Positions 27,784-55,616 of a stretch of DNA of 64,000 nucleotides are shown here, piece by piece. Both the position numbers and the translations under genes were made by a program. Numbering within the stretch: the first letter of the stretch is position 1; every line of letters starts with the position of its first letter. This DNA is from Syntrophaceae bacterium UBA7520 (lineage in GTDB: Bacteria > Desulfobacterota > Syntrophia > Syntrophales > Smithellaceae). Below the pieces are notes generated by a model that was given only the letters and a program-made list of their open reading frames with translations, was not told where the DNA came from and did no database searches. The stretch is taken from the NCBI GenBank assembly GCA_002478265.1, contig DLNC01000026.1, positions 6,792 through 70,791 of the forward strand. Reading direction: 5' to 3'.

Positions 27784-27841
27784 AATCTTTCCTAATTTAT
27801 TATTTTCTGCACCTTGCGAAATCAAAATACTTTTATTTTTT

Positions 27842-28690: not shown

Positions 28691-28711
28691 CTCCTGCCTC
28701 CTTAGCCTTCT

Positions 28712-29239
28712 TTACGATGACTTTGTTTTTTCAAAAATATCCTGGACGGACTTCAAATCCTTCGTGCGCGGCGAAACAAGCGCGAGTTTTCCTTTTAGGA
28801 ACATGCCCGGAGCCAGGGTGATATCCGAAAACAAATCTCCCGATTTTAACTTATACTGCACCATCATCATCGGCTCGTTGATACGGCCGCCCATTTTAAT
28901 GCCGGACAAAAACGCTTCGTGGAACTTCAGCACATTTCTCTCGCGCGCGCCGATGCCGGATTCGATAGCCATCTGCCTGAGCACATCCATCATGCGGGCG
29001 ATATCCACTTCGTTCGGACAGCGCGTGATGCATGTTTCACACGACAGGCAAAGCCAAATGGTGGAACTCCTGAGCACTTTATCGCGCTCGCCGTTCTGGA
29101 TCATTTTAACCACCCTGTTGGGGTTAAATTCCATATACGACGCCGTGGGACACCCCGCCGTGCACTTGCGGCAATGATAGCAGCGTTGAATGGGCACTCC
29201 GTTTATTCTCTCGTTTACTTCTTCCAGAAAAGTTTGCAT
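28712..29239 (-). CDS. hdrC: Heterodisulfide reductase subunit C
   Basis: CYHCRKCTAGCP and CLSCETCITRCP. The ORF-track start at 29347 would overlap the upstream gene by 83 nt; the ATG at 29239 (MQTFLEE) fits better. Confidence 0.8.
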   Translation of the reverse strand: MQTFLEEVNERINGVPIQRCYHCRKCTAGCPTASYMEFNPNRVVKMIQNGERDKVLRSSTIWLCLSCETCITRCPNEVDIARMMDVLRQMAIESGIGARERNVLKFHEAFLSGIKMGGRINEPMMMVQYKLKSGDLFSDITLAPGMFLKGKLALVSPRTKDLKSVQDIFEKTKSS

Positions 29240-29264
29240 GTGAACTCCGCTTTTTAAATCCTCG

Positions 29265-30272
29265 TCAGGGATTGTAAATAAAATCTTCTTTGTCGTTTTC
29301 ACTGAATTTGCCCAAAGGCGGCATGTCTTCCATGGAAGATCCGGCACGGTTGCCGAACATCTCCCAGCAGTCCTTGTCTATTTTTTTGAGGAAATTGCGC
29401 AAATCAACGCCCATCGGGCAGACGGCCACACAGGAGCCGCAATCCACGCAACGCCCCACCATGTGATAGAGGCGCATGAACTGGAATACCTGCGTGTCAG
29501 TCGCGTCTTCGCCGATACCAACCCACTGCGGCATGCTTTGCTCGGCAAAACAGGTCGGGCAATAACAGGACGGACAAGCCTGGCGACAGGCATTGCAGCG
29601 AATACACTTGGCCATTTCCTTTGTGAAGTACGCCCAACGCTCTTCAATGGACTTGGCTTCAAATTCCTTAACCTGGTCATACTCGGCTTCGGGATTCATG
29701 GCTGGCGCAGGCGAACCGACCATAACGTCGGAAATAATGGGATTATTATACCGGCAAGTGCGGCAGCTGTCTGAAAGGACTTCTTTCAGCGCGACGGTCT
29801 TTTCACCTTCCGCCGTTTTCACCTTAATCTGGCCGCCTTCCATATCGCCTTCAATGATATCCGCGCCGCCTGCGGCGGTTCTTAATTTTTTACTCTCCAC
29901 ATAGCCGTCGCAGGGAACGCCGATAATGTAAACTTCGCCGCGGTCATATTGCCTTTCCTGCAAATGGATAATAATGGAACGCGTGGTGCAGCCGCGGGCG
30001 ACCACCCCGATCACTTTTTTCTTCCTGTCTTCCGGCTTAACGCGCTTTTGCGAATTTTTATGCGCGGTAATCAAGTCATGCACGAACTTGGCCAAGTTTT
30101 GCGTGCAGAGATTGTTCCAGATTAGTTTTTCCGCCTCTTCCGGCCTAGTGATAAAGCAAGGCGTTGCCGTCAAAGGAAGCGTGCCTTTTTCATAGCCAAT
30201 GATCACGTCAGCTTTCTTTTCCAAAAGCAGCCTTTGAGCTTCTTCCCGCAATTTAGTTTCAATGTTTTCCAC
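29265..30272 (-). CDS. FlxC-like iron-sulfur subunit, second copy
   Basis: CIRCNACRQACPSCYC and CVDCGSCVAVCP. N-terminal half paralogous to 21164..22027. Confidence 0.7.
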   Translation of the reverse strand: MENIETKLREEAQRLLLEKKADVIIGYEKGTLPLTATPCFITRPEEAEKLIWNNLCTQNLAKFVHDLITAHKNSQKRVKPEDRKKKVIGVVARGCTTRSIIIHLQERQYDRGEVYIIGVPCDGYVESKKLRTAAGGADIIEGDMEGGQIKVKTAEGEKTVALKEVLSDSCRTCRYNNPIISDVMVGSPAPAMNPEAEYDQVKEFEAKSIEERWAYFTKEMAKCIRCNACRQACPSCYCPTCFAEQSMPQWVGIGEDATDTQVFQFMRLYHMVGRCVDCGSCVAVCPMGVDLRNFLKKIDKDCWEMFGNRAGSSMEDMPPLGKFSENDKEDFIYNP

Positions 30273-30318
30273 AGTGATAATTTCCTTGTTAGTTTTTATA
30301 CTCTTCTTATAAATTAAC

Positions 30319-30759
30319 CTATGCCACTGTCTTAACCATTTTACTGGCCGGTCCCAATGCCTTTATTTTTTCCGTCGCTCCTTTGATGACCTGCGCCCAT
30401 CTATCTCCTTCGGACGCGGAAACCCAGGTGAATATGGTACGGTCCCCTTCCACACCGATGTAATTCAGGAAACTTTTTAACGTCGCAAACTTGCGCCGCG
30501 CCACCATATTTCCCGAAATATAGTGGCATTCACCGGGGTGTCACCCCGAAACAAGAACGCCGTCGGCTCCGGACTGCAGGGCTTTCACTATATAAAAAGG
30601 ATTTATTCTGCCGGTGCAGGGAACACGGATGATTCTCACGTTGGTCGGATATTGAATCCTGCTGATACCGGCCAGATCGGCGCCCGCGTAGGTACACCAG
30701 TTGCAGACGATGGCAACGAATTTCGGTTCCCATTCCTTATTTGCTAAGTTTTCAGCCAT
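30319..30759 (-). CDS. mvhD: MvhD/FlxD-like subunit, selenocysteine form (in-frame TGA at 30541..30543 read as Sec; 146 aa)
   Basis: ORF-track fragments 30541..30759 and 30319..30507 share a frame. The joined product reads ...[17 protein letters not shown]...WVSASEG and aligns end to end with the Cys paralog 22024..22455, with the TGA on the first Cys of GCHPGDCHY. Confidence 0.8.
30501..30526 (-). promoter_or_regulatory. Candidate bacterial SECIS hairpin
   Basis: mRNA 5'-CCACUAUAUUU-CGGG-AAAUAUGGUGG-3': an 11-bp stem (one G-U pair) and a 4-nt G-rich loop, starting 14 nt 3' of the UGA. Confidence 0.55.
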
Positions 30760-30815
30760 ATCTTCTCCTTAATATTTTCCTTCCCGCGGCAAGGCGGCTT
30801 TATCAGCCGGTCACC

Positions 30816-33800
30816 TCAGTTTAAATTATATATCTGTGCCACAACCTCTTCGTTATTGAAACCGTTGAGATCAACCGCGTTCATGCGGCAGGAGGCGGTG
30901 CAAACGCCGCACCCCTTACACAAAACAGTGTTAACAACCGCGCATCCCTCATTAACGTCCACGGCAATAGCGCTGTAGGGACAATTGATCTCGCAAAGGC
31001 CACAGGCCGAACATCTTTCTTTGTTGACATAGGCGGTCTTGCCTTCCGCTTCGATGTAGTCCAGCGTGAGTATCGTGCAGGCGCGGGACACGGCCGCGTT
31101 GGCCTGGGTGACCGTCTCATCGCTGAATTTCGGCGAATGCGACATGCCGCACATAAACACGCCGTCCGTGGCAAAATCCACCGGCCGCAATTTGACGTGC
31201 GCCTCCAGGAAAAAGCCGTCCTGGTTGGTGGGAACTTTCAACATCTGACCGATGGCCGCGTTTTCCGGATTCGGGACAACGCCCACACTGAGCGCTACGA
31301 TATCCGCGGGCAGAGTTACCTGCTCATTAAGAATCGGGTCAAAAACTTTTACTTCCAGCTTATCGCCCGCGGCGACAACCTGCGGCTTTCTTTCTTCTTC
31401 ATAAACGATGAATTTGATATTCGCTTCCCGCGCCTTCTTGTAATAATCTTCCTTGAAGGAGAAAGTGCGGATATCGCGGTAAATTATGGTGATATCGCGT
31501 GAGGGATCCGCGGCTTTTAACTCCAGCGCGTTTTTAATGGCCTCCGAGCAGCAGTAACGGCTGCAGTAAGGCCTTTCCTTCTCGCGGCTGCCCACGCACT
31601 GAATCATCACCACATTTTTCACCGCTGCCAGTTGCGGATCTTTTTCGTAAAGCAGCTTTTCCAGTTCCCGCTGTGTTTTTACTTTGTCGTTCTGGCCATA
31701 GAGATATTCCTTCGGCCTGTTTTCGTAAGCTCCCGTGGCCACCAGCACCACGCCATGCTCAAAAACTTTTTCTCCGTCCTTGGCTATGACGGTCGTTTTG
31801 TAATTGCCGATGAATCCTTCAATCTTTTTGATCTGAGCCGACGTGACAACGGTAATCAAGGGATTATTGTAAACTTTTTCCAGAAGTCCCTTGAGGTGGG
31901 CTTTTGTATCCAGTCCTTCCAGCGTTTTATATAAATGATTGTAGTTGCCGCCGAGGCGCTCCTCTTTCTCTATAATGAAGGAGGCAAATCCCTGATCGGC
32001 CAAGGAAAGCGCCACGGTAATGCCCGCCAAACCGCCACCGATAACCAGCGCCTGATGGTTAACGGCCAGCTGACCGGGCTTCAAAGGTTTTAGATACTGG
32101 GCCTTGGCCACCGCCATGCGCAACAAATCTTTGGCTTTTGCCGTTGCCTTTTCCGGTTCGTGCATATGCACCCACGAATCCTGGTCGCGGATATTGGCCA
32201 TTTCAAACAGATACCTGTTGAGACCGGCTTTCTCGCAGTTTTCCTGGAACAGCCCTTCATGTGTGCGCGGCGAGCACGAAGCAACTACTACGCGCGTCAA
32301 ATTTTCTTCTTTGATCACTTCCGCCATTTTTACCGCGGTGTCCTGCGAACAGGTAAACAAATTGTCGGCCGCGTAAACAACGGTGGGAAGCGTTTTAGCG
32401 TAATCGCGCACGGCGGGCACATCAACCACTCCTCCGATGTTGATGCCGCAGTGACAGACGAACACGCCGGTGCGCACCGGCTGGCCGCGCAGATCTTTTT
32501 CTTCCGGGTTTTCGACCGGCGTAATCATCGTGCCGCGCCGTGAGGCAAGCAGGCCTTCCGCGCAGGCGGCGGCGGCGGAAGCTTCCATAACCGTTTCCGG
32601 AATATCTTTAGGTCCTCCGAATGCGCCACAAACAAACACGCCGGGGCGTGATGTCTGCACGGGATTTTCCAGAGACGTTTTGCAGAAACCATGTTCTTCC
32701 AGTTCAATGCCTAAGCTGGCGGCCAGCTTTTTCGCCTCTTTCGGCGGCATCAGACCGACAGAAAGAACGACCATATCGAATTCCTCTTCGGTAAACGTGC
32801 CGTCCTGATTCACGTATTTGATCAGTAGATTGTTCGTCTGCTGCAATTCCTTAATCGTCGAAGGCATGGAACGGATATAACGGATACCGTATTCTTCCTT
32901 GGCGCGATTGACAAAACGGTCAAAGTCCTTGCCGTGGGCGCGGATATCCATGTAGAAGATGGTCGGCTCCAGCCCTTTGGCGTGCTCCTTGCCGATAATC
33001 GCCTCTTTCGTGGCATACATACAGCAAACAGACGAACACCAGCTGTTGTCGCAGGAAACATCGCGCGAGCCGACGCACTGAATGAAAGCGATTTTTTTCG
33101 GCTCCTTGCCATCCGAAATTCTCTGCACGTGGCCGAAATAAGGACCGGACGCGGAAAGAATCCTTTCGAACTGAATAGCTGAAATGACATTCTTGTAAAT
33201 GCCGTAACCGTATTCACCGCGCAGGCGCGCGTCGAAAATTTCAAAGCCGGGTGACGCGATCACCGCGCCTACTTCTATTGTTTCTTCCTGAACCGTCATG
33301 TCGTGATCAATGGCTTTAGCGATACACGCCTCCACGCACTGATAACATTCCGAACAAATGCCGCAATTAAGACAGCGCAGCGCCTCGGCAATCGCCTGCG
33401 CTTCGTCAAAACCGACGCCTACTTCGCGGAAATTGGTTACGCGGTCTTGCGGCTTCAGATGCGGATATTTCACGCGCGGGCTTTTCGGCACGTTCGACAC
33501 ATCGGCTTTATCCGCCAGATCTTTCGTCCAGTCTTTTTCCCTACCGGCCTTGATATCCATACCCTGCAGATAAAGATCGATGGATTTGGCTGCTTCCTTG
33601 CCTGAATAAACTGCTTTGACCACCGTCTGCGGGCCGGTGACCACGTCGCCGCCGGCGAAAATGCCGGGAACGTTAGTGGCAAAGGTCACCGGGTCGTAAT
33701 TGATATTGCTCCATTCGCTGACAGAAACGCCACTTTCTTTGGGCAGGAAGGATAAGTCCGCCTCCTGACCGATGGCGGGAATAATGGAGTCGCACTCAAT

Positions 33801-35243
33801 GATGAATTCCGAGCCCTTGATTTCGACGGGACGGCGGCGGCCGCTTTTATCGGGCTCGCCCAATTCCATGCGCACGCATTCCAGGGCCGCCGCCTTGCCA
33901 TCCTTGCCGATGACCCTTTTAGGCGCGACCAGAAATTCCATTTTGATTCCTTCTTCCAGCGCTTCTTCTATTTCTTCATTCGCGGCGGGCATTTCCGCGC
34001 GGGTGCGTCGATAAAGAATAAAGACGTCTTTGGAACCGGTGCGGACCGCGGTGCGGACAGCGTCCATCGCCACGTTACCGCCGCCGATCACCGCCACTTT
34101 ATCTCCGAGCGGGACTTGCTTGCCGAGATTGATTTGCGTGAGATAATCAACGCCCTGAATAACGCCGCGCATATCCTGCCCGGGAATATTCATACGGCTG
34201 CTTTTCATCGTGCCGCAGCCGATAAAAATCGCATCGTAATCTTTTTTCAGTTTTTCGAAGGGAATATCCTTGCCGATGCGGGTATTAAGATGAATCTTTA
34301 CACCCAAATCTTCGATTACCTTTATTTCCGCCCGCAGGACATCTTTGGGCAAACGATATTCCGGAATGCCGACGGCCATCCAGCCGCCCGCCATGGGCAG
34401 GGCTTCAAACACTTCCACATCATAGCCTTCAATAGCCAGGTAATAAGCGCAGGTCAACCCGGAAGGACCGGAGCCGATTATCGCCACCTTCTTGCCCTTG
34501 TTCTCTTTCTTTTCCGGCAGGTAACGCGTGTCGCTGTTTAAATCCAGATCCGCCACAAAGCGTTTCAGGTGCATGATATCAATGGGTTCATCCACCTTGC
34601 CGCGCATACAGGCGGTTTCACACGGATGGTTACAAACGCGCCCGCAGACAATGGGGAACGGGTTATCCTTTTTGATAAGTTTGAGAGCTTCCTTGAATTT
34701 TCCCTGACCGATCAGCGCCACATAGCCCTGCACGCTGATGTGCGTGGGACAATTTGCCTTGCACGGCGACGTGCCGAGTTTATCAATGGCAAAGCCGCTG
34801 GGAATCGCCTGTGGAAAATGACGGTAGATGGCCTGTCTTTCACTGAGGTTGCCGTTAAATTCGGCTTTAACGTTAACGGGGCAAACTTTGGCACAATCAC
34901 CGCAGCCCGTGCACTTGTCCAGATTCACGTAGCGGGGAGCGCTAGTCAGTTTAATCTTGAATTTACCCGGTTCGCCTTCCACCGCCTCAACGGTGCGCCG
35001 CGTCATGATTGTCACGTTGGGATGGCGCCCTACCTCCACGAGCTTCGGCGACAAAATGCACGCGGAGCAGTCATTGGTGGGAAATGTCTTATCCAGCTGA
35101 GCCATTACCCCGCCGATACTAATACCGTTTTCGACGAGATATACTTTCATTCCTGAGTTGGCTAAATCGAGCGACGCCTGAATGCCGGCTATACCCGAAC
35201 CAACGACCATTACTGCGCCAACTTTCTCATCATTTTTCAGCAC
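30816..35243 (-). CDS. Giant HdrA-like fusion: HdrA unit interrupted by a GltD-like NAD(P)H/FAD module, followed by a second complete HdrA unit ('HdrL'-type)
   Basis: 1475 aa, GTG start with AAGGAG SD. HdrA unit 1: GSGIAGIQASLDLA, DKTFPTNDCSACIL. GltD-like module: NPFPIVCGRVCNHPCETAC, VAIIGSGPSGLTCAYYL, VAVIGGGNVAMDAV. HdrA unit 2: VFVCHCGINIGG, VIGGGLAGITVALSLA, QCVGSRE..CSRYCC. Terminal CSACGLCEINCP / CKGCGVCTASC. Confidence 0.85.
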   Translation of the reverse strand: MLKNDEKVGAVMVVGSGIAGIQASLDLANSGMKVYLVENGISIGGVMAQLDKTFPTNDCSACILSPKLVEVGRHPNVTIMTRRTVEAVEGEPGKFKIKLTSAPRYVNLDKCTGCGDCAKVCPVNVKAEFNGNLSERQAIYRHFPQAIPSGFAIDKLGTSPCKANCPTHISVQGYVALIGQGKFKEALKLIKKDNPFPIVCGRVCNHPCETACMRGKVDEPIDIMHLKRFVADLDLNSDTRYLPEKKENKGKKVAIIGSGPSGLTCAYYLAIEGYDVEVFEALPMAGGWMAVGIPEYRLPKDVLRAEIKVIEDLGVKIHLNTRIGKDIPFEKLKKDYDAIFIGCGTMKSSRMNIPGQDMRGVIQGVDYLTQINLGKQVPLGDKVAVIGGGNVAMDAVRTAVRTGSKDVFILYRRTRAEMPAANEEIEEALEEGIKMEFLVAPKRVIGKDGKAAALECVRMELGEPDKSGRRRPVEIKGSEFIIECDSIIPAIGQEADLSFLPKESGVSVSEWSNINYDPVTFATNVPGIFAGGDVVTGPQTVVKAVYSGKEAAKSIDLYLQGMDIKAGREKDWTKDLADKADVSNVPKSPRVKYPHLKPQDRVTNFREVGVGFDEAQAIAEALRCLNCGICSECYQCVEACIAKAIDHDMTVQEETIEVGAVIASPGFEIFDARLRGEYGYGIYKNVISAIQFERILSASGPYFGHVQRISDGKEPKKIAFIQCVGSRDVSCDNSWCSSVCCMYATKEAIIGKEHAKGLEPTIFYMDIRAHGKDFDRFVNRAKEEYGIRYIRSMPSTIKELQQTNNLLIKYVNQDGTFTEEEFDMVVLSVGLMPPKEAKKLAASLGIELEEHGFCKTSLENPVQTSRPGVFVCGAFGGPKDIPETVMEASAAAACAEGLLASRRGTMITPVENPEEKDLRGQPVRTGVFVCHCGINIGGVVDVPAVRDYAKTLPTVVYAADNLFTCSQDTAVKMAEVIKEENLTRVVVASCSPRTHEGLFQENCEKAGLNRYLFEMANIRDQDSWVHMHEPEKATAKAKDLLRMAVAKAQYLKPLKPGQLAVNHQALVIGGGLAGITVALSLADQGFASFIIEKEERLGGNYNHLYKTLEGLDTKAHLKGLLEKVYNNPLITVVTSAQIKKIEGFIGNYKTTVIAKDGEKVFEHGVVLVATGAYENRPKEYLYGQNDKVKTQRELEKLLYEKDPQLAAVKNVVMIQCVGSREKERPYCSRYCCSEAIKNALELKAADPSRDITIIYRDIRTFSFKEDYYKKAREANIKFIVYEEERKPQVVAAGDKLEVKVFDPILNEQVTLPADIVALSVGVVPNPENAAIGQMLKVPTNQDGFFLEAHVKLRPVDFATDGVFMCGMSHSPKFSDETVTQANAAVSRACTILTLDYIEAEGKTAYVNKERCSACGLCEINCPYSAIAVDVNEGCAVVNTVLCKGCGVCTASCRMNAVDLNGFNNEEVVAQIYNLN

Positions 35244-36123: not shown

Positions 36124-37518
36124 CTATTCACGTTCAAAGACGATGCCGTATTTTTCCAGTTTTCGTTCCAATGTCGGGCGAGAAACGCCCAATATCTCGC
36201 AGATTTCGCCTTTGTTCTTTTTGTCGTTTTCTTTGAGGATTTTTCTGATGTAGCGCTCTTCGACTTCGTCGAGCGTCAGCAGCTTGCCCGATGCCGCCGG
36301 CGTGAATACCTCCGCCAGATCGTCTTTGCGTTCCCTGCCCGGTTCTTCCTTGCCCAGTTCGGGGAAATCATTTTTTCCCAAAACCTGGCCCTGCGCGACC
36401 ACACAGGCGCGCACAAGCAGATTTTCCAGCTCGCGGATATTGCCCGGCCAGTGGTACTGCATAAACATCTCCATAACCTCATCGGAAACACCGATAATCT
36501 TTTTATGCAGATCCAGATTTATCTTGGCCAGAAGATAATCAATCAGTGGAGCGATATCCTGACGCCGCTCTCTGAGGGGTGGAATGGTGATGGACACAAT
36601 GTTCAACCGGTAATAAAGATCGTCGCGGAACTTTCCTTCCTTGACCAGCGCCTTAAGATCTTTGTTGGTCGCGGCCATAATGCGGGCGTTGACTTTAACC
36701 TTGTCCTTGCCGCCCACCCTGTCGAATTCCATTTCCTGCAGAACGCGCAGCAGTTTCGCCTGCAGATTAACCGACATCTCGCTTATTTCGTCCAGAAAAA
36801 CTGAGCCGTAGCGCGCCAGTTCAAACTTGCCCAGTTTTCTTGTCACGGCGCCGGTAAAAGAGCCTTTTTCGTGGCCGAACAATTCAGACTCCAGAAGCGT
36901 TTCCACAATCGCCGAACAATTGACGGCGATAAAAGGTTCATCCGGCGAAGTGTTGTTGTGAATGACTTTGGCAATTAATTCTTTTCCCGTGCCGCTCTCA
37001 CCCTGAATCAAAACTGTCGTGCGGCTTTGCGAAACAATGCCGACCGTCTTGAAAATTTCACGCATTTGATTGCCGGTGCCGATAATGTCGCCCACCCGAA
37101 AATTGCGCGACGGCTCCATTAAAAGACCGTCAATCTTCTTTTCCATCTCCACCGATTTCAGGGCTTTTTTTATGGCGATATCCAGTTCGTCCACATTCAC
37201 CGGCTTGTGAATGTAATCAAAGGCGCCGCCTTTCATGGCGTTGATGGTTGTTTCCATGTCGTGAAAGGCAGTAATCATGATGACTTTGACGTTTTCGTTT
37301 TCTTCCTTGAGGTCCTCCAGCACGGAAAACCCGTCAACATCCGGCAGTCTGATATCCAGAATAACGACATCAGCGGGGTTTTTGACATATTTGTTGAGGC
37401 CATCCGTGCCTGTTTCCGCTGTCTCGACTTTATAGCCTTCTTCCGTCAGGTACAGATCCAGCGTTTCGCGAATCGAAGCGTCATCATCGATAACCAGAAT
37501 TTTGGACATGTCCTCCAC
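36124..37518 (-). CDS. Sigma54-dependent response regulator (NtrC family: REC + AAA+ + Fis-type HTH)
   Basis: REC (ILVIDDD, VILDIRLP). AAA+ Walker A GESGTGKE, GSFTGA sigma54-contact loop. C-terminal HTH ICEILGVSRPTLERKLEKYGI. Confidence 0.9.
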   Translation of the reverse strand: MEDMSKILVIDDDASIRETLDLYLTEEGYKVETAETGTDGLNKYVKNPADVVILDIRLPDVDGFSVLEDLKEENENVKVIMITAFHDMETTINAMKGGAFDYIHKPVNVDELDIAIKKALKSVEMEKKIDGLLMEPSRNFRVGDIIGTGNQMREIFKTVGIVSQSRTTVLIQGESGTGKELIAKVIHNNTSPDEPFIAVNCSAIVETLLESELFGHEKGSFTGAVTRKLGKFELARYGSVFLDEISEMSVNLQAKLLRVLQEMEFDRVGGKDKVKVNARIMAATNKDLKALVKEGKFRDDLYYRLNIVSITIPPLRERRQDIAPLIDYLLAKINLDLHKKIIGVSDEVMEMFMQYHWPGNIRELENLLVRACVVAQGQVLGKNDFPELGKEEPGRERKDDLAEVFTPAASGKLLTLDEVEERYIRKILKENDKKNKGEICEILGVSRPTLERKLEKYGIVFERE

Positions 37519-37519
37519 C

Positions 37520-40087
37520 CTACGCTCTAATTTCCTCGACCGGTCTGCCGCTGTCGCTTTTCACCGGTAGAATAACCCGCACCGTGGTTCCTTCATCTTT
37601 TTTGCTGATGATATCAATCGTGCCCTGATGCAGATCAATAATTTTTTTCACCTGTGAAAGCCCCAGACCTGTACCATATTTTTTCATCGTAAAGAAAGGG
37701 TTAAATAAATGCGGCATGTCCGCCTTATCGATGCCGCAGCCGTTATCTCTGACTTCCACCACAACCGCCTGCCTGTTGTTTTCTTGCATACGCAGCGAAA
37801 TATAGATATGCCCATCCTGCTCGATTGCCTCGGCGGCGTTGCGGATGATATTTAAAAAGGCGTCGCCCAGCATAGCGGCGTCAACTTCTATCGGGGCAAC
37901 ATCGCCGAAATCCGTGTGGACCTGGATTTGCTTATCCGTAATTTCCTTTTCAGCCAAAGCAATGGCCTGATCAAGAACTTTGGCCACGTCTGCGGGAGTT
38001 TTCTGCGGTTCCATCGGTTTGGCGAAAATGAGAATGTTATTAACCAGTGTTTCCAGATGTTCCACTTCTTTTTCCGCTATTTTAAATCTCTTCAGGTCAT
38101 TGCCGGCTGGATTTATCCGCTTTTGCAGAATCTGCAGGCTCATTTTAATCGAGGAAAGCGGGTTGCGCACCTCATGCGCGATGCCCGCGGATAGCTGACC
38201 CAACGCCGCCAACTTTTCGCTTTCAAAGAGCTTTTTCTCCAGATTTTTGAATTCCGTAATGTCGCGCTGCACCACCAAATAACGGTTGGTGCCGATTACC
38301 GGAGAAGTGGTCATCAGCAGATTTACTTTACGGCCGTCTTTTCTCACCGCTTCTATTTCGTAAGGCCTGTAAATGCCCTTTTTTGCCAGCTCCCACATCG
38401 ACAGGACAAAATCTCTGTTGTTCGGGGCAACAAATTCCAAAAAATGAACGCCTTGAAATTCCCGGGAATAAGATTTGCCGCCCCTCATTCTGCCGCGACT
38501 CACGTAATTAATGATGCCGTTTTCATCCATCTCATAAATCTTATCGGGCAGACTTTTAATGATGGACTGCAAATAATTATAAAGCTCTTCAACTTCTCTT
38601 CTCAGTTCGATGTTTTCCGTCAATTCGTTTTGCAGTGTTTCCGCGTATTCGCGCAGGCTTCTGCTGAGCTCCTCGTCACGGGAAACATCCTGCAGGGTTT
38701 CGACCGCCGCGATAATCTGGCCTTTTTCATCATAGACCGGAGCAGCCAGAAAATAGAGATAGCGACTGCGTCCACCGAGATTTTCGAAAAAGTCATTCGC
38801 CTCATAAGCGCCGACAACCTTGTCGGATTTTCTGACTTTCTTCGTGTCATAATACTGGCTTAATTTATCCACCGCGTTGTCAATAATCAAATCCGCGATA
38901 ACTGGTCTTTTCACGGAATAAAAAGGCATGTAATGTTTGTCGGTGTCTACCATTTCCCGGGCGGAAAAGCCGGTCAATTCCTCGCAGGCGCGGTTCCATA
39001 GAATGACTTTATGTTCTTTGTTGATAACAAATGTTGGAATGGGTGATCCTTCAATAATGCCCTCAATGGTTTTTTTCTCGCGCAGCAGTTTTTCCTCCCA
39101 ATCTTTGCTTTCGGCCGCTCTTCTTTCTTCTTCCTTTACGCGCACTCTTTTACCTTCCCAGAAAGCAAAGGAAATACTGGCGATAACCACAACCAAAATC
39201 ACCATGATGACGCTGAAAAGCGTATAGGCAAAAGTTTTGCGCAGCGGCAAAACAACGTTACTGTAAGGCGAAACGATCAAGACCACCCACCTTTTCCCGC
39301 CAAACTGCAGCGGAAAGTACGCAATGATGCTTCTTTGCTCTTTATGATTACTTAACAGAACCAACGCGTCCAGGTAATTACCGTGCGTAAAAGAAAGATC
39401 AATTTCTGTTTTATTAAAATTTCGCACCAAATAATTGATACCCTTTCCAATAAACGCATTGTCGGGATGAATTACAATTTCTCCTTTTTCGTCTACCAGC
39501 CAAAGGGCTCCCATGTTGTTGTCTTGGATCTGTTTTTCGTAGTCTTCAATCATCGCCGCCAAGGACAGGGAAACCACCCATGCCCCGGAAAAAACATCAT
39601 TCTTCCGCCAGAGCGGATAACCAAAAACGTAATGCCAGTCTGTTTTTTCCTTTCTGCCGGTCAGGACTGCTTTTTCGTTCAAGGCCAGGTTTATATAACT
39701 GCTTTTATTGTTCTTGATGTCTTTTAAATGATAGGCGATATCCACGGCCACCGATGCGCCGGCGGGAAAAACCTGCTTTATCCTGCCGTTTCTATCAACA
39801 AGAAATGTCGCGTCAATTATTCTTTCCCATCCGGAAAAAACATATTTATAGTCATCGGCAAATCTGGGGGCAACATTACCCTCCGGTGACTGGAGGCGGG
39901 AAAGCACTCTCACATTTTTTTCCAGCCGGGTCAGCAAATCAACCATCCTGGCGGCCGTGCTTTGCGCGTAGGCAAGCTGCTGGCGGCTGAAAATTTCCAC
40001 CATATCCTTTTCGCGGGCATGATTCACCGTCAGAGCGAGCAAGATAATCAGAATAATTACCGTGGAGGTGGCAAACCAGATACGCAT
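37520..40087 (-). CDS. Sensor histidine kinase with periplasmic Cache-like domain, 2 PAS, HisKA and HATPase
   Basis: N-terminal TM, a ~270-aa extracytoplasmic region, a second TM, then PAS modules. H-box AHEVRNPL, N-box NIIRNAAEA, DNGCGI, GTGLGL. The stop is 1 nt before the regulator's start. Confidence 0.9.
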   Translation of the reverse strand: MRIWFATSTVIILIILLALTVNHAREKDMVEIFSRQQLAYAQSTAARMVDLLTRLEKNVRVLSRLQSPEGNVAPRFADDYKYVFSGWERIIDATFLVDRNGRIKQVFPAGASVAVDIAYHLKDIKNNKSSYINLALNEKAVLTGRKEKTDWHYVFGYPLWRKNDVFSGAWVVSLSLAAMIEDYEKQIQDNNMGALWLVDEKGEIVIHPDNAFIGKGINYLVRNFNKTEIDLSFTHGNYLDALVLLSNHKEQRSIIAYFPLQFGGKRWVVLIVSPYSNVVLPLRKTFAYTLFSVIMVILVVVIASISFAFWEGKRVRVKEEERRAAESKDWEEKLLREKKTIEGIIEGSPIPTFVINKEHKVILWNRACEELTGFSAREMVDTDKHYMPFYSVKRPVIADLIIDNAVDKLSQYYDTKKVRKSDKVVGAYEANDFFENLGGRSRYLYFLAAPVYDEKGQIIAAVETLQDVSRDEELSRSLREYAETLQNELTENIELRREVEELYNYLQSIIKSLPDKIYEMDENGIINYVSRGRMRGGKSYSREFQGVHFLEFVAPNNRDFVLSMWELAKKGIYRPYEIEAVRKDGRKVNLLMTTSPVIGTNRYLVVQRDITEFKNLEKKLFESEKLAALGQLSAGIAHEVRNPLSSIKMSLQILQKRINPAGNDLKRFKIAEKEVEHLETLVNNILIFAKPMEPQKTPADVAKVLDQAIALAEKEITDKQIQVHTDFGDVAPIEVDAAMLGDAFLNIIRNAAEAIEQDGHIYISLRMQENNRQAVVVEVRDNGCGIDKADMPHLFNPFFTMKKYGTGLGLSQVKKIIDLHQGTIDIISKKDEGTTVRVILPVKSDSGRPVEEIRA

Positions 40088-40193: not shown

Positions 40194-40376
40194 TTAACCA
40201 TCTTCTTCGTTTTTTTTGCCTGTTTTTTCTGCCTGAAGCATTCCAATTAACACGTAAACCAAGATGGCCGCAGTAAGAGAAATGAGAAGCTTGGCCAAGC
40301 CGCTTTCTATTTTCAAAAGATAGGAGCAAATCAACCAGACGACCGGGTAGGTGACCGCCGTCAAAATTTCCTGCAT
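40194..40376 (-). CDS. Small two-TM membrane protein (hypothetical), possibly the first gene of the kinase operon
   Basis: 60-aa ORF with an AGGGGA SD 6 nt upstream of the ATG. It has two hydrophobic helices and a charged tail. Confidence 0.4.
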   Translation of the reverse strand: MQEILTAVTYPVVWLICSYLLKIESGLAKLLISLTAAILVYVLIGMLQAEKTGKKNEEDG

Positions 40377-40777
40377 AAAAAATCCCCTAAGAGAAGGTCG
40401 GCATGTAATATCAGCAGTTCTGAATGATTATATTAGCGGTCTGACTGCAAAATTTCAATATAAATATAATCCCGCTGTTCAACACTTAAGAATTGTTTTC
40501 AGGCTGGGGAAATGCGCGCGAAATACCGCGCGCGCCTTAAATACCCGCTTGTATGTTTCATGCGAAATTATTTAACAAAACATTAAACAAAGAACAATAA
40601 TTGCTTCTTTTTTATTCGCGCGCAGAAAAATTATACCCATATTGTTTACCGCGCGCTTTTCGCTCAGACCAAGCGGATAAATAAAACAATCTCAAGTAAT
40701 TAGCGGGGCGGCGCACCTTTTCCGTCAATCCTAATTATTTGTACTGCCGGTCATTATCTGCGCTCTTTTTTCAATAA

Positions 40778-40793
40778 TGGCATATATAATGCA
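40778..40793 (+). promoter_or_regulatory. Sigma54 (-24/-12) promoter candidate
   Basis: TGGCATATATAATGCA fits TGGCAC-N5-TTGCW with GG and GC in canonical register. It lies 107 nt upstream of the ATG at 40900, in the divergent region shared with the sigma54-activator operon. Confidence 0.65.
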
Positions 40794-40899
40794 GTAACTT
40801 AGCGCTGATTGGAACAAAATGATTTCCGCTTTTCAGGAAATCCAATTTGTGTTAGTTATCCAACGAATTCATGAACATTAATCGGAAAGGAGAAAAATA

Positions 40900-41277
40900 A
40901 TGTTACACAAATTAAGCACAAAATTTCTAACCGCACTTACCACGATAATCATTTTGCTGGTGTCGAGTTCTTTTGTTTTTGCCGCAGAACAGGTTATCCC
41001 CGCTGCTGATTCTTACGCCAAGGCAATTTTTGCCGTTGGAGCGATGATTGCGGCAGGCTTAGCTATTGGCATCGGCGCAGTCGGAGCGGGTATGGGCATC
41101 GGAACAGCCGCCAACGGCGCGTGTTCCGCTGTGGGAAGAAATCCCGGCGTGCAGGCAAAAATCATGATGACCATGCTGGTCGGCATGGCCATGGCTGAAT
41201 CAATCGCCATTTACGCCCTGGTCGTTTCTCTCGTGCTTCTCTTTGCTAACCCTTACATGCGTTATTTTTTGGGTTAA
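40900..41277 (+). CDS. atpE: F-type ATP synthase subunit c-like proteolipid with a ~40-aa signal-peptide-like N-terminal extension; orphan (no other atp genes nearby)
   Basis: The hairpin of two TM helices has the c-subunit pattern GIGAVGAGMGIG...VGRNPG...LVGMAMAESIAIYALVVSLVLLFANPY. The N-terminus is MLHKLSTKFLTALTTIIILLVSSSFVFA-AEQ. GGAAAGGAG SD. Confidence 0.7.
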   Translation: MLHKLSTKFLTALTTIIILLVSSSFVFAAEQVIPAADSYAKAIFAVGAMIAAGLAIGIGAVGAGMGIGTAANGACSAVGRNPGVQAKIMMTMLVGMAMAESIAIYALVVSLVLLFANPYMRYFLG

Positions 41278-41327
41278 CAAGCTGATAATGTTAACTGAAA
41301 ATTTAACAAAGGTTAGGGGGAATTATA

Positions 41328-42632
41328 ATGTCAAACAATAAAAAAGGTAAGCAGTTCTTCAGCATTGGAAGCGTGTTCTTCCTGCTTATCGTAATCCCCT
41401 TATCACTGATGGCGTTTTTAATTGCCAACGGCATTTTTAAGCTGGGGGTTACCATACAAGAGAGAACAGCCGTTGTTCTTGACCAGAAAGCTCAGGAAGA
41501 TATAAAAGCACGGGCCATAAATACCGCGAATGAGGTTGCCGGTTTCCTGACGGAAAGCAAGAAAGACTTGCTTATTGCAACAATTATCCCGCCTACAGAA
41601 ACAGCATTCAGACAGTTTGTTCTGGAAAATAGAAAGCCCATCTGGACCCGAGACGGAAAGAGGGTCCAGCAGGTTTTAGTCCCCCTCTACAAAGAGATGT
41701 CTCTTATAGACAGGAAAGGCAAAGAACTAATTAAGGTTGTCGACGGTAAGGTTATGCCGGAAAGTCAATTGAAAAATGTCAGTATCCCGGCAAATACAAC
41801 CTACAAAAACGAAACCTACTTTGCCCAGGCACAGCTTCTGAACAAAGGCGAGGTATATGTTTCTCCGGTAACCGGTTTATATGTAACCAAGGACGCTTTT
41901 AACAAAGGCGCCAGATTCAACGGTATCATCCGGCTGGCCACGCCGCTCTTTGACAAAGATGGATTTGCCGGCGTAATCGCGCTTGCCCTAGATTACCGCC
42001 ATCTGGCCACATTTACCAATCACATCATTCCCACACAGATGGAAAAGGTGTATGAAGTTGACGCAACCGCGGGCAACTATGCCTACATCATTGATCACCG
42101 CGGCTATGTAATTGTTCACCCAAGCTCCTACCATATAGTGGGACTAAACGCGCAGGGAGTTCAGGTCCCCACGCTTAATGAGCGAAACGCGAATGATTTG
42201 ATGAAAAAAGGCATAGAAGCGTTAAACCTTCATCAATTGGGTTTCATGGATCCCAATTTGCCGGTCATCGCGAAAGAAGCGGCGGCGGGAAAATCCGGCG
42301 TGCTCAGTTATAAATTCGGCGGGCACGCCAAGTTTGTCGCCTATGCCCCGATTAAGTTTTACACAAAGAATCTTCCGGCGCCTGCCGGTTTCGGCTGGGT
42401 CGGCATGGGAATTGATGTCGATAAATATAAAGAAGCAGCGCTGAAAGTGGCGCAAAATATAGACAAGGAAGCCAAGGCCTGGACGGCGACAATCATCTTT
42501 ATTCTTGTCGCTTCGATGATTATCCTGTTTTTGATCATGTGGCTTCTGATGCGCGGCATCAATCGTTCCATCGCCGCGGAAGTTCCGGAAGGATCTGAAC
42601 AGCCGCTCGATTTTGACGATGACGATGATTAA
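41328..42632 (+). CDS. Cache-domain-only membrane protein (TM + ~350-aa extracytoplasmic double-Cache-like region + TM + 30-aa acidic tail; no output domain)
   Basis: Two TM helices flank a region with Cache-like blocks (AGVIALALDY, AYIIDHRGYVIVHP, FVAYAPI, GWVGMGID). The protein ends ...EQPLDFDDDDD. GGGGGA SD. Confidence 0.65.
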   Translation: MSNNKKGKQFFSIGSVFFLLIVIPLSLMAFLIANGIFKLGVTIQERTAVVLDQKAQEDIKARAINTANEVAGFLTESKKDLLIATIIPPTETAFRQFVLENRKPIWTRDGKRVQQVLVPLYKEMSLIDRKGKELIKVVDGKVMPESQLKNVSIPANTTYKNETYFAQAQLLNKGEVYVSPVTGLYVTKDAFNKGARFNGIIRLATPLFDKDGFAGVIALALDYRHLATFTNHIIPTQMEKVYEVDATAGNYAYIIDHRGYVIVHPSSYHIVGLNAQGVQVPTLNERNANDLMKKGIEALNLHQLGFMDPNLPVIAKEAAAGKSGVLSYKFGGHAKFVAYAPIKFYTKNLPAPAGFGWVGMGIDVDKYKEAALKVAQNIDKEAKAWTATIIFILVASMIILFLIMWLLMRGINRSIAAEVPEGSEQPLDFDDDDD

Positions 42633-42644
42633 ACCAGATAAAAA

Positions 42645-42670
42645 GGCCGAATGAAAATTCGGCCTTTTTT
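42645..42670 (+). terminator. Rho-independent terminator
   Basis: GGCCGAA-TGAAAA-TTCGGCC followed by TTTTTT, 13 nt after the stop of 41328..42632. Confidence 0.8.
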
Positions 42671-43212: not shown

Positions 43213-44283
43213 TTATTCCCAGTCCACCAGCATGAATCCCGCGCTTATGCGGTTAACACTGGCATTGTAGTCGATCAGGCTTTCCCCGTAACCGTTAAAA
43301 TACTGAAAATAGATACTGAATATATCCAGCTTATCCCAAAACAGGGAAAGCGGAATGCTCCAGTCAAGCTGCACGGCGCCCTTATTTTCACTGCGCAGGT
43401 TGTTGCGCAGCATGGCGGAAATTCGGTTCTTCTTCCAGTAGTAAGTAAGCCATAGTTCCCCGTATCCCATGTATTTGGTTATGCCGGGATTGTCGTTTTT
43501 GCTCTCTCCGTCCGGTATCCGATACCATGTCTTGAGAAAAATATTGAAATTTCCTTTTTCGAATCCCGCGTTGGCGACAACACGATTCCAGCTGCGTGAA
43601 AGCGGCGAGGAACGGCCATTGGATTGATGATTCAATCCGATCGTCACAAAACGCAGTTTTAGGTCATCAATGCCGGGAATGTTTACATCGGTGCGGAAAT
43701 TAACCAGCGCCTCCGGTTCGTAGTTTGTATCACGAAACGGAGAGGAAAACGTGGCATTGTAAAGCTGCCAGTAGGAAAGCTGCGTGTAGGCAATCCACAA
43801 ATCAACGCCCTTTAAAAAATCCCATCCGTCAATATCCATGCACCACGGCTTTACCTTGAAGCTCAACTGGAACTTCGCTTCGCTGCGCTGCGCCTTGGCG
43901 TCAGGATCAAAATCCAGGGCATTGTTATCATTGGGCGTGGAGTTATAAGCGATGGGCAAGAAATAATTCGGGCGGTAGGGAGTGAGCATGAAAAAGGCAT
44001 GCTTGGATTTTTCCCCGTCCAGTTCCCAGTGCCGGGAAAATACAGACGCCTCCTTTTTTTCCTGCGGAGGCTTTTCTTTCGCCGGAACATTGCTGTCCGT
44101 AATTACGTTCTTTTCCGTCTCAGTCTTCTGCCGCGCCAAATTATCATAACACTTCAACCTCTCGACATTGTCTTTAATTACGGCGCAGTCGGCAAAATTA
44201 TTATTGCCCGCCGCTATTGTAGGCAATGGGCAGAAGATAGTCACCAAGAAAAAAAGCCCGAACAGGTGATATCTGAAATTCAT
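43213..44283 (-). CDS. pldA: Outer-membrane phospholipase A
   Basis: Signal peptide, YTQLSYWQ, and the catalytic block GLNHQSNGRS. Confidence 0.85.
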   Translation of the reverse strand: MNFRYHLFGLFFLVTIFCPLPTIAAGNNNFADCAVIKDNVERLKCYDNLARQKTETEKNVITDSNVPAKEKPPQEKKEASVFSRHWELDGEKSKHAFFMLTPYRPNYFLPIAYNSTPNDNNALDFDPDAKAQRSEAKFQLSFKVKPWCMDIDGWDFLKGVDLWIAYTQLSYWQLYNATFSSPFRDTNYEPEALVNFRTDVNIPGIDDLKLRFVTIGLNHQSNGRSSPLSRSWNRVVANAGFEKGNFNIFLKTWYRIPDGESKNDNPGITKYMGYGELWLTYYWKKNRISAMLRNNLRSENKGAVQLDWSIPLSLFWDKLDIFSIYFQYFNGYGESLIDYNASVNRISAGFMLVDWE

Positions 44284-46204: not shown

Positions 46205-46480
46205 TCAGGTTACGATCGTTTTCACCAGTTCGATGACCGGGTTAGTGAAGAGAGCCATGAGCGCCGTGTAGAGAGCGAAAGCGCCGACAGCTTCAGTTGT
46301 GTACATTTTATGGTATTTTCTTTTCATTTGAACCAGCAGAAGGCCGCCGACAATCAGCATGCCCAGCTGAAAATAGGGGAAATTAGCCGCGCCCCCGACC
46401 GCGTATTCGGCGAAAGCGAATGTTGCCGTTAAGAGAACCGCGACCACCGCTACTGTGATTGTTCCTATTGTCTTTTTCAT
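46205..46480 (-). CDS. Small membrane protein (91 aa, signal peptide + 2 TM), unknown function
   Basis: AAAGGAGG SD 8 nt upstream of the ATG. It has its own terminator and promoter-like element, so it is probably monocistronic. Confidence 0.6.
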   Translation of the reverse strand: MKKTIGTITVAVVAVLLTATFAFAEYAVGGAANFPYFQLGMLIVGGLLLVQMKRKYHKMYTTEAVGAFALYTALMALFTNPVIELVKTIVT

Positions 46481-54496: not shown

Positions 54497-55594
54497 ATGG
54501 ATTTAAAAAAGACGCCGCTTTACGAAAAACACGTTTTGCTAAATGCCAAAATAATCGATTTCGGCGGCTGGGCGATGCCCGTTCAATACAGCAATGTAAT
54601 TGAAGAGCATCATACAACCCGCACTGCCGCGGCCATTTTTGACATCTGCCACATGGGGGAACTAGAAGTAAAAGGCCCGCGGGCGTTTGATCTGTTGCAG
54701 CTTGCCCTCACCAGGGATCTTGCCGACCAGAGGTTGGGACAGGTCAAGTTAAGCGCCCTCCTTAATGAAAAGGGCGGCATAATCGACGACCTTACCGTGT
54801 ATAAAAAAAGCGATGACTCTTTTATGCTGGTAACTAATGCCACAACTAAGGAGGCGGATTTTTCACAAATTTCGGGCATTCTCAGACAAAAAAGATACGA
54901 TTGCGTTCTCGAAGACATCAGCGACAAAACAGGAAAGCTCGATATCCAGGGGCCGCTTTCACAGGAAATTCTGCGGCAATCAATCACTGCAGATTTACAA
55001 AATCTTCCTTATTACCATTTTATAGAAGCAAACGTCATGGATATACCCGCGATCATTTCGCGCAGCGGCTACACCGGCGAAGACGGCTTTGAAATCTATG
55101 CGCCAGCCAAGCAGATCGGCGATATCTGGGAGCGGCTCATGGAAACAGGCAAGGCCTTCGGATTGAAACCCGCGGGACTGGGCGCGCGCGACACGCTGCG
55201 GCTGGAAGCGGGCATGATGCTCAACGGGCAGGATATGACCCGGGAAACAACTCCTCTGGAAGTTCCCTACGGCTGGCTGATTGACTGGAAAAAGGATTTC
55301 ATCGGCAAATCCGCCCTGGAGGAATTGAAAAAGACCGGGCCGGCGAAAAAATTGGTCGGCTTTGAAATGATTGGCCGCGGCATCGCCCGGCACGGCTATA
55401 AGGTATTTAGCGGCAAAAAGGAAATCGGCGTGGTAACTTCCGGCACTTTTTCCCCGACGCTGAACAAAGCCATCGGCCTGGCTTTTCTGGATGTTGATTT
55501 CAGCGCGCCGGAAACTTTCATTGATATCGCCATCCGCGAAACCAAGGCACAGGCAAAGATTGTAAAATTACCTTTCTACAAGAGAAAAAAATAA
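54497..55594 (+). CDS. gcvT: Glycine cleavage system T protein (aminomethyltransferase)
   Basis: KKTPLYEKH, GGWAMPVQY, FDICHMGE, SRSGYTGEDGFEI, GLGARDTLRLEAGM. Confidence 0.92.
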   Translation: MDLKKTPLYEKHVLLNAKIIDFGGWAMPVQYSNVIEEHHTTRTAAAIFDICHMGELEVKGPRAFDLLQLALTRDLADQRLGQVKLSALLNEKGGIIDDLTVYKKSDDSFMLVTNATTKEADFSQISGILRQKRYDCVLEDISDKTGKLDIQGPLSQEILRQSITADLQNLPYYHFIEANVMDIPAIISRSGYTGEDGFEIYAPAKQIGDIWERLMETGKAFGLKPAGLGARDTLRLEAGMMLNGQDMTRETTPLEVPYGWLIDWKKDFIGKSALEELKKTGPAKKLVGFEMIGRGIARHGYKVFSGKKEIGVVTSGTFSPTLNKAIGLAFLDVDFSAPETFIDIAIRETKAQAKIVKLPFYKRKK

Positions 55595-55616
55595 TATATT
55601 ATTAAGGAGAAGGATC

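Follow-up and report, generated by a model that had tools for sequence, protein, structure and literature searches.

A signal-peptide-bearing F-type c subunit and an output-less double-Cache protein share a conserved bicistron with a predicted sigma54 promoter in Smithellaceae

Why should the gene for the rotor subunit of an ATP synthase lie apart from the other atp genes, behind what looks like a promoter of its own and immediately upstream of a sensor-like membrane protein that has nothing to signal with? The question is raised by a stretch of 64,000 nucleotides (hereafter the window) from Syntrophaceae bacterium UBA7520, a member of the Smithellaceae (Syntrophales), which comprises positions 6,792 to 70,791 of contig DLNC01000026.1 (assembly GCA_002478265.1). 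A first reading of its letters, referred to below as the original prediction, had singled out two genes, which are described here with amino acids abbreviated as aa and transmembrane as TM:

40900..41277, + strand: F-type ATP synthase c subunit (proteolipid; atpE), 125 aa, Pfam PF00137
41328..42632, + strand: output-less double-Cache membrane protein, 434 aa, consisting of TM1, a periplasmic dCache domain of ~330 aa, TM2 and a 25-aa tail

Homologues of both proteins are labelled Smithella or Smithellaceae by their sources. As set out below, the two genes are transcribed together and have been kept side by side in two lineages, which argues that the functional link lies between their two products.

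Judged by its sequence, the product of 40900-41277 is a true F-type c subunit. It matches the Pfam family ATP-synt_C (PF00137) over residues 50-113 with 65.2 bits against a cut-off of 24 and aligns over its full length with F-type c subunits of solved structure (A. woodii c1/c2, Spirulina c15 and chloroplast c14; E 6e-24 to 1e-13), among which PDB entry 4BEM is the best match. The hairpin with a carboxylate in helix 2, as originally proposed, is borne out by this alignment, in which the Glu of AMAESIAIY coincides with the ion-binding Glu of the Spirulina, chloroplast and A. woodii subunits. Likewise, GRNPG occupies the position of the polar loop (R-x-P) of the solved proteins, and the Gly-rich helix 1 reads GIGAVGAGMGIG. 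From its ion-site residues, the subunit is probably coupled to H+, because a helix-1 position that is Gln in the solved homologues is Ile in the window protein, as is the equivalent position in E. coli. Across the species-genome loci the c subunit is 62-98% identical, and a comparison of 77 homologues places the hairpin under strong purifying selection and finds the core of the signal peptide variable.

The N-terminal extension that precedes this hairpin had been put at ~40 aa. A signal-peptide-like extension is indeed present, though it takes up only residues 1-28 (~28 aa, encoded by 40900-40983), the remainder being a conserved periplasmic N-tail. By inspection, a basic MLHKLSTK is followed by a 19-residue core and then by V-F-A/A-E, with the slash marking the predicted site of cleavage. 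Among the same 77 homologues, both the n-region (M-x-H-K-F-x-K-K) and the site (VFA/AE) are conserved and the hydrophobic core varies. A fixed site next to a variable core is the pattern expected of a signal peptide that is cleaved, and the mature protein would then begin with AEQVIPAADSYAK and open with a conserved tail of ~12 residues, AE-x-IP-x-GESY-x-K, somewhat longer than its counterpart in the solved c subunits. A signal peptide is not the anomaly that it was initially taken for, as the c subunit of Aquifex aeolicus, AtpE, is reportedly made with one. The Aquifex protein is similarly a two-helix proteolipid with a basic n-region, a hydrophobic core and an Ala-X-Ala-type site followed by Ala-Glu, and the atp genes of that organism are likewise scattered over several loci. 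Cleavage of the Smithellaceae subunit is, by contrast, a prediction, and only the Smithellaceae gene has its own sigma54 promoter, its own kinase/activator pair and a constant output-less Cache neighbour.

The Cache gene starts 50 nt downstream of atpE. A Cache-like ectodomain between two TM helices had been proposed for its product, and several lines of evidence now support a dCache fold. Although the protein itself remains just below the cut-off of Pfam dCache_1 (43.6 bits against 45), its homologue P0241 scores 55. An AlphaFold2 model made from an alignment of 68 diverse relatives (pLDDT 89.4, pTM 0.81) retrieved double-Cache sensor domains from the PDB with Foldseek at E 1e-10 to 1e-7, and for HK1S-Z8, Mlp24, CtaA, TlpA and PctA the probability was 1.00 with target-normalised TM-scores of 0.55-0.73. 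A profile search of PDB sequences with the same protein returned noise only. Beyond TM2 there are just 25 residues, compared to the ~30 estimated earlier, and these end in ...PLDFDDDDD, an aromatic residue joined to an acidic run. Neither Pfam nor NCBIfam finds a domain in them, and the protein therefore lacks the transmitter domain of a signal transducer, as the original prediction had maintained.

The relatives of this protein suggest what it is. A full-library HMMER search yielded 443 of them. Over residues 16-415, with both TM helices included, the protein shares 30-52% identity with sensor modules that form the N-termini of longer proteins, namely histidine kinases, a hybrid kinase, a chemoreceptor and HAMP-GAF proteins, in which TM2 is followed by HAMP, PAS, GAF, HisKA-HATPase or MCPsignal. 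The output-less form of ~434-438 aa is found in only two clusters at 50% identity: that of the Smithellaceae (P0241) and another (P0243) of 15 sequences from metagenome-assembled genomes (MAGs) named 'Deltaproteobacteria bacterium'. By these comparisons, the Cache-only protein is a sensor module that lost its transmitter. The tails of both output-less clusters share a motif in which Pro and an aromatic residue are combined with a stretch of acidic residues (PLDFDDDDD, DDLYDDEEEK, LPWDEDEEDRD). The TM helices are among the most invariant parts of the protein, and in an alignment of eight sequences His225, His232, Asp256 and His264 are invariant, with position 222 being Asp except in the second output-less lineage, where it is Asn. 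The nearest output-carrying relative is a kinase (P0242) with 52% identity and an almost identical TM1. Its gene sits inside an Mrp/Mnh cation/proton antiporter cluster of a related MAG (L089:6424-19417), which also holds two Usp genes and further response regulators, and flanking genes in this genome match those of one Smithellaceae locus. A general tie of the sensor family to ion pumps was considered and rejected, as it holds for P0242 only: P0245, P0247, P0270 and P0420 have unrelated neighbours, and P0244 is uninformative, since its 2.2-kb contig carries the P0244 gene alone.

One genome per species was scanned with an alignment of the Cache protein as query, which gave 225 genomes with a relative, and the best 80 of these (all Smithellaceae or Syntrophaceae, with at least 62% identity) were compared. 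Another 80 loci were supplied by metagenome contigs, which were scanned with an AtpZ alignment. With counts restricted to loci having enough flanking sequence, atpE is located directly upstream of the Cache gene in 75 of 76 genome loci, the single miss being an alignment artefact, and in 48 of 48 metagenome loci, with a gap of 45-53 nt throughout the Smithellaceae loci. Conservation of the pairing, which the original prediction had named as decisive, is thus evident from 123 informative loci as well as from a second lineage with different neighbours.

That second lineage corresponds to the other output-less cluster (P0243/P0400), which is deltaproteobacterial and 39% identical to the window protein. 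There, too, the Cache gene lies directly downstream of a c-subunit gene. The 120-aa c subunit starts with a signal peptide of its own (MNRVRIFVFLSLVLFGVSSIAFA/ANTG), and a hidden Markov model (HMM) of the Smithellaceae c subunits recognises it with 114-121 bits. The pair has a sigma70-like promoter, with no sigma54 promoter and no kinase nearby, and it is followed by rnfA/E-B-C-D-G-E/A (rnfABCDGE) and an nfnAB-like pair. The more distant Cache relatives that do carry an output domain show no linkage to a c subunit. Since the pair survives a change of both regulator and neighbours, these comparisons argue that the functional link is that of the c subunit with the Cache-only protein. At one locus of the second lineage (L086:1598-1819), ~220 nt of GC-rich sequence separate atpE from the Cache gene, as against 45-53 nt in Smithellaceae, and this could lower the expression of the Cache protein relative to the c subunit.

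In the Smithellaceae, the intergenic region upstream of atpE and the sequence following the Cache gene contain a series of candidate control elements:

40550..40585, unstranded: putative enhancer (upstream activating sequence, UAS) for the activator, an inverted repeat AATGTTTT-N~18-AAAACATT
40679..40703, unstranded: conserved A/T-rich block AAATAAAACAATCTCAAgtAATTAG, situated between UAS and promoter and holding the IHF-like core TCAA-N4-TTA
40778..40793, + strand: sigma54 -24/-12 promoter TGGCATATATAATGCA (TGGCAT-ATATA-ATGCA)
40794..40899, + strand: leader of ~105 nt with the conserved motifs ATTATTTCyCTTTyC and, in relatives, TTTATGTTATGG
40884-40893, + strand: ribosome-binding site GGAAAGGAGA, conserved in the upstream alignment
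42640..42669, unstranded: bidirectional intrinsic terminator, a GC-rich hairpin with T-runs on both strands, which closes the bicistron of the window genome

Control of atpE by sigma54 had been suggested from the window sequence, and its relatives bear this out as a prediction. The element TGGCA[CT]-N5-NTGCA is present in 74/75 genome and 46/47 metagenome loci (120/122 altogether), and in 79/80 loci it is located 117-159 nt (mode ~125) upstream of the atpE start codon. A conserved element, a constant distance and an adjacent gene with a Sigma54_activat domain are together what would be expected of a sigma54-dependent promoter. Presumably, the activator binds at the UAS repeat, which is the best-conserved block of the intergenic alignment (74 loci) and lies ~195-240 nt upstream of the -24 element. 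The A/T-rich block is a candidate IHF site by comparison with the known consensus, and the predicted upstream layout is the classical arrangement of enhancer, bend and -24/-12 element. GC-rich CGCGCGC palindromes, which are not in the family consensus of the intergenic region, are inserted at 40508-40540 and 40611-40656 of the otherwise A/T-rich sequence. For the leader, RNAalifold finds no conserved structure and Rfam contains nothing above threshold. A riboswitch or structured leader was rejected on these results, and the leader motifs may instead be a site of protein binding or translational control. A terminator after the Cache gene had also been proposed, and the hairpin at 42640-42669 with its ensuing T-run confirms it.

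The presumed source of this control is a divergent operon, which consists of a gene for a small TM protein, a Cache-PAS kinase and a sigma54 activator:

40194..40376, - strand: two-TM protein, first gene of the kinase operon, 60 aa with an almost invariant core IESGLAKLLISLTAAILVYVLIG
37520..40087, - strand: sensor histidine kinase with TM, double-Cache, TM, PAS, PAS, HisKA and HATPase, without HAMP
36124..37518, - strand: sigma54-dependent response regulator with a receiver, an AAA+ sigma54-interaction domain and a Fis-type helix-turn-helix

Among the loci with at least 4.5 kb of upstream sequence, the kinase is encoded upstream of atpE in 66/68 from genomes and 26/30 from metagenomes, or 92/98 in total. 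The regulator always adjoins it, is 76-98% identical across loci and carries the Pfam domains Response_reg, Sigma54_activat (220 bits), AAA_lid_14 and HTH_8, whereas the 60-aa two-TM protein, 60-93% identical across loci, is without a family match in Pfam or NCBIfam. The Cache-like ectodomain that had been noticed in the kinase does match dCache_1, with 42 bits and thus under the cut-off of 45. There is no detectable similarity between the Cache domains of the two proteins, and we therefore rejected a recent duplication of the kinase's sensor as the origin of the Cache-only protein. The best NCBIfam matches of the pair are AtoS and AtoC, both far from their equivalog cut-offs (265.8 against 646 and 467.4 against 714, respectively). 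By its domains, the pair is AtoS/AtoC-like (AtoC/NtrC-like) in architecture and not an orthologue. It resembles AtoS/AtoC, DctB/DctD and NtrB/NtrC in domain architecture as well as in the layout of enhancer, IHF-like site and -24/-12 element. Unlike these, the Smithellaceae pair misses every NCBIfam equivalog cut-off, and its target is a bioenergetic rotor subunit instead of a catabolic or transport operon. Six loci (L027, L079, L135, L138, L152 and L154) have kept the promoter, atpE and the Cache gene with the kinase and regulator absent within 7-10 kb upstream, and it seems therefore that the regulator can act from elsewhere.

Evidence that the bicistron is expressed comes from four anaerobic-digester metatranscriptomes (X28, X29, X30 and X31), whose contigs are 88-95% identical to the window and derive from related strains. 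In all four, a single contig spans the junction of atpE and the Cache gene. Taking the depth of these assembled contigs as a crude measure of expression, atpE-Cache reaches 717-1148 in X28, 43-74 in X29, 72-200 in X30 and 336-2001 in X31, as opposed to 2-53 over the kinase and regulator genes of the same runs. The pair stands at ~5-30x the depth of neighbouring genes, a pattern repeated in every run. The 5' ends of the RNA contigs are found just downstream of the promoter, within ~10 nt of the -12 element, and the intergenic stretch on the upstream side of the promoter, towards the divergent operon, is without RNA contigs in all four metatranscriptomes. The two genes of the bicistron are co-transcribed at a high RNA level. 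In X31, one RNA contig of a related strain reads through the terminator. The organism of the window is itself dominant in a hydrocarbon metagenome (run X1), where a contig at depth 119 has zero differences from the window.

How far does the module extend? The original prediction had described a self-contained unit, of which the small TM protein, kinase, activator, proteolipid and Cache-only protein are indeed conserved. The TerB-like gene, which had been tentatively counted in, falls outside: it is conserved in a small sub-clade of closest relatives only, and its product has no family match in Pfam or NCBIfam. Both this gene and the one for phospholipase A1 were consequently dropped as members, each being confined to the closest relatives. 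A different extension is seen among the 66 loci with at least 1.5 kb of downstream sequence. In 35 of these, the Cache gene is followed in the same orientation by a gene for a 64-70-aa 2-TM protein (sm64) and a gene for a protein of ~80 aa; both are inverted in 5/66, and sm64 occurs alone in 4/66. The ~80-aa protein passes the Pfam family ATPase_gene1 (AtpZ/AtpQ, PF09527) with 31-35 bits against 26.6, and wherever the contig flank suffices, all AtpZ relatives from metagenomes are in this module. The presence of an AtpZ-family gene in the operon ties the module to Fo biology. Two relatives (L060 and L065) have the order atpE, Cache, sm64, AtpZ, TerB-like. There is no AtpZ homologue in the window, which has a homologue of sm64 at some distance:

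46205..46480, - strand: displaced sm64 homologue (2-TM), phmmer E 7e-10 to a protein of locus L001

The window has thus lost sm64 and AtpZ from the position after the Cache gene. In many Smithellaceae genomes the module is near rpmH-rnpA-yidC, and on a 2.78-Mb Smithella contig the cluster adjoins rpmH-rnpA-yidD-yidC-jag-mnmE, which recalls the origin-proximal position of the atpZIBE operon in Pelobacter (PMC3543383). The split deltaproteobacterial arrangement of atpZIBE plus atpXFHAGDC is similar in having its Fo and F1 genes at separate loci and an AtpZ-family gene with atpE (PMC3543383; PMC4154653). The Smithellaceae cluster differs from atpZIBE in that atpB and atpI are missing and the order is atpE, Cache, 2-TM gene, atpZ.

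Neither Pfam, applied to ~48 open reading frames (ORFs), nor phmmer with the E. coli Atp proteins against all ORFs detects an atp gene other than that of the c subunit in the 64-kb window, in agreement with the initial remark that atpB, atpF and the F1 genes are lacking, and tblastn and phmmer searches with nine E. coli Atp proteins of the window plus ~170 related loci again identify the c subunit only. The gene is not encoded beside atpB or other atp genes, the AtpZ-family gene at related loci being the sole exception. Dispersed Fo genes are typical of Smithellaceae. They have been called 'dispersed' in Ca. Smithella cisternae M82_1, for which Table S9 of the same paper gives F1 at 463_2:7, the b subunits at 463_8:9, atpB at 4_23 and 'ATP synthase subunit C' twice, at 4_31 and 437_33 (PMC5606693). 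The neighbours of 437_33, a gltD-like gene (437_38) and an Hdr/Flox cluster (437_38:51), match those in the window (PMC5606693), where the order is atpE, small TM protein, kinase, regulator, EngB and a GltD/HdrA-like giant ORF. This table and the matching gene order make it probable that the window genome contains another putative c gene, by annotation, which would lie closer to atpB though not next to it. The possibility that the window gene is the only atpE in its genome, which had been held out as grounds for a more ordinary explanation, is accordingly contradicted by the M82_1 annotation (4_31, 437_33) and by that alone. A type-specific HMM finds no second c gene in any locus flank, and among the contigs of run X1 with at least 80% identity to the c subunit there are only the organism's own copy and, at low depth, those of the same module in other strains. 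The M82_1 paper is silent on the kinase, sigma54 and the Cache gene (PMC5606693), and a literature search on sigma54 control of a c subunit retrieved nothing relevant. A survey of atp loci documents splits at every junction, with a split between the genes of the a and c subunits reported only for epsilonproteobacteria (PMC4154653). That a genome may hold several c genes is illustrated by A. woodii (c1/c2/c3) and Pelobacter carbinolicus, and M82_1 lists two; however, the A. woodii copies are inside one atp operon, whereas the Smithellaceae copy lies outside such an operon, with regulation of its own and next to the gene for a sensor-like protein.

Based upon these features, we favor, with a confidence that goes about halfway, an explanation in which a kinase and sigma54 control the supply of an F-type rotor subunit that is co-expressed with a truncated sensor working with it. 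The Cache-PAS histidine kinase would sense a periplasmic cue and phosphorylate the NtrC-type activator, which, while bound to the upstream inverted repeat and aided by a bend of the DNA at the IHF-like site, would open the sigma54 promoter. The resulting transcript would code for an F-type c-subunit precursor with a cleavable signal peptide, probably H+-coupled, as well as for a double-Cache membrane protein without signalling output, and in most genomes it would add a small 2-TM protein and an AtpZ-family protein. Presumably, the c subunit is inserted, processed and built into the c-rings of F1Fo, whose a, b and F1 genes are elsewhere. The Cache-only protein would serve as a membrane partner, accessory or regulatory, of the c subunit, the c-ring or Fo assembly and would read a periplasmic signal without acting through the kinase.

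Several points weigh against this explanation. The contact between the c subunit and the Cache protein is a proposed one, and no fusion of the two is present among the matches listed. Cache is a signalling fold, and the kinase is nearly always adjacent in Smithellaceae, which makes a role as co-sensor a fair alternative. The c subunit reaches the cut-off of none of the NCBIfam c-subunit equivalogs (PRK13468 is best with 76.9 against 116; TIGR01260 has 39.6 against 43.95) and is therefore a divergent member. The genes for a, b, delta, alpha, gamma, beta, epsilon and AtpI are all absent within 10 kb at ~170 loci, and with a second c-subunit gene listed nearer to atpB in M82_1, the window copy may not be the housekeeping rotor subunit. 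Lastly, the RNA depths are those of contigs from related strains and are a coarse gauge of expression.

Of the alternatives, the one that survives best is that the Cache-only protein pairs with the neighbouring kinase via its TM helices and tunes it as a co-sensor or feedback element, with atpE being merely another target. Some kinases have small membrane modulators, and the conserved 60-aa membrane protein at the head of the kinase operon is reminiscent of these. Moreover, the Cache protein is the complete sensor module of a kinase family minus the transmitter, its TM helices are among its most invariant parts and the kinase operon is adjacent in 92/98 loci. We nevertheless consider this possibility unlikely. 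The atpE-Cache pair is kept at 39% identity in a lineage without the adjacent kinase or the sigma54 promoter, and the six loci without a kinase in a flank of at least 4.5 kb upstream still keep both pair and promoter. In addition, the Cache domains of the kinase and the Cache-only protein are unrelated in sequence, and the constant spacing of 45-53 nt to atpE points to co-expression in a fixed ratio.

A second alternative, which overlaps with the explanation that we favor and which we judge to be quite unlikely in its own right, is that the bicistron provides an alternative rotor isoform. The regulated second c gene would change the c-ring, the ion-to-ATP ratio or the direction of the enzyme, and the Cache protein would be an assembly or docking factor specific for that isoform. 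Dedicated control by sigma54 and a kinase would be unusual for a housekeeping gene, and we found no precedent for it in the literature; furthermore, the mature protein has a conserved N-tail (AE-IP-GESY-K) that slightly exceeds those of the solved c subunits in length, and M82_1 lists two c subunits (4_31 and 437_33) in addition to atpB at 4_23 (PMC5606693). One metagenome contig (L124:2385-3180) carries two tandem signal-peptide c-subunit genes (2385-2759 and 2806-3180) upstream of the Cache gene, and gene duplication therefore does occur. Conversely, the second gene is known from annotation alone, which could be wrong, the window-type copy is highly expressed in digesters, and the run X1 contigs of at least 80% identity are only same-module copies. 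In many genomes the window-type gene lies with AtpZ near rpmH-rnpA-yidC, much like the origin-proximal atpZIBE operon of Pelobacter (PMC3543383), and so it may even be the ancestral housekeeping gene.

A more elaborate version of these ideas combines them: two rotor subunits would be chosen by a periplasmic signal via the kinase and sigma54, thus resetting the ion-to-ATP ratio or direction, and the Cache protein would be a periplasm-facing accessory subunit that docks on the N-tails of the c subunits and, through its acidic tail, on the basic loops of the c-ring, thereby coupling the cue to rotor assembly or rotation. We offer this version as a doubtful speculation. Auxiliary proteins of a comparable make do exist, as the alpha2-delta protein of voltage-gated Ca2+ channels is a dCache-containing auxiliary subunit and YycH/YycI are accessory proteins of WalK. 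These are alike in being membrane-anchored with an extracytoplasmic sensor-type fold and no enzymatic output, and they act by contact with a membrane partner. For the Cache-only protein this is an analogy and not membership, the partner being in its case a proposed one.

An ordinary split atp operon, with the Cache gene as an unrelated passenger kept by chance or by shared transcription, appears improbable. Splits are documented at every atp junction (PMC4154653), and the Fo genes of Smithella are indeed 'dispersed' (PMC5606693); however, a passenger would hardly be adjacent in all 123 informative loci with near-constant spacing or recur with its c subunit at 39% identity between entirely different flanks, and the Cache relatives that have an output domain never adjoin atpE. 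Finally, the original prediction had raised a use of the proteolipid in ion conduction or membrane sensing, gated by the Cache protein. No result supports such a free c-ring or pore, and we regard it as very improbable despite the lack of a, b and F1 genes nearby, the adjacent rnf genes of the second lineage and the Mrp cluster around the nearest full-length sensor relative. All the hallmarks of a functional rotor subunit are retained in the hairpin, among them the RNP loop through which F1 is contacted, an AtpZ-family gene is in the same operon, and channels made of free c-rings are, to our knowledge, without precedent in bacteria.

Elsewhere in the window, positions 19221-35243 are taken up by a large Hdr/Flox-type cluster with HdrA-like, MvhD-like, CCG-domain, FAD/NAD-binding and 4Fe-4S proteins, including a 1475-aa GltD-like/HdrA-like fusion, and this cluster equals genes 437_38:51 of M82_1. 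Two adjacent response-regulator/PAS/HD-GYP-type proteins are encoded at 1130-7695, one of them 1495 aa long with seven PAS repeats. An outer-membrane phospholipase A1 (43213-44283; PF02253, 310 bits) whose N-terminus weakly matches VasI is encoded convergently with the TerB-like gene and is common to the closest relative only. Lastly, a complete glycine-cleavage operon (gcvT, gcvH, gcvPA, gcvPB, lipoyl synthase and dihydrolipoyl dehydrogenase) is found at 54497-61010.

Taken one by one, c subunits of this type, signal peptides on them and scattered atp genes are of kinds already known, whereas the strict pairing of a c subunit with an output-less double-Cache protein in two lineages, together with a dedicated sigma54 regulon, appears to be undescribed, and the literature that we searched held no description of the module. 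The genes of ATP synthase are commonly regarded as housekeeping genes with constitutive expression, yet in hundreds of syntroph genomes the rotor subunit, and no other, appears to be controlled by a dedicated environmental sensor and sigma54. The Smithellaceae syntrophs are energy-starved organisms that exist near the thermodynamic limit, living on fractions of an ATP per reaction, and it is such syntrophs that govern how propionate and alkanes are degraded in digesters, peat and oil reservoirs. Should a second c gene be confirmed, the swapping of rotor subunits to retune the ion-to-ATP ratio would become directly testable in bacteria. Co-inheritance and co-transcription in two lineages suggest that Fo has in the Cache-only protein an accessory or regulatory partner that had escaped notice, and if this is true, the protein would represent a bacterial Cache domain that serves an ion-translocating machine instead of a signalling pathway.

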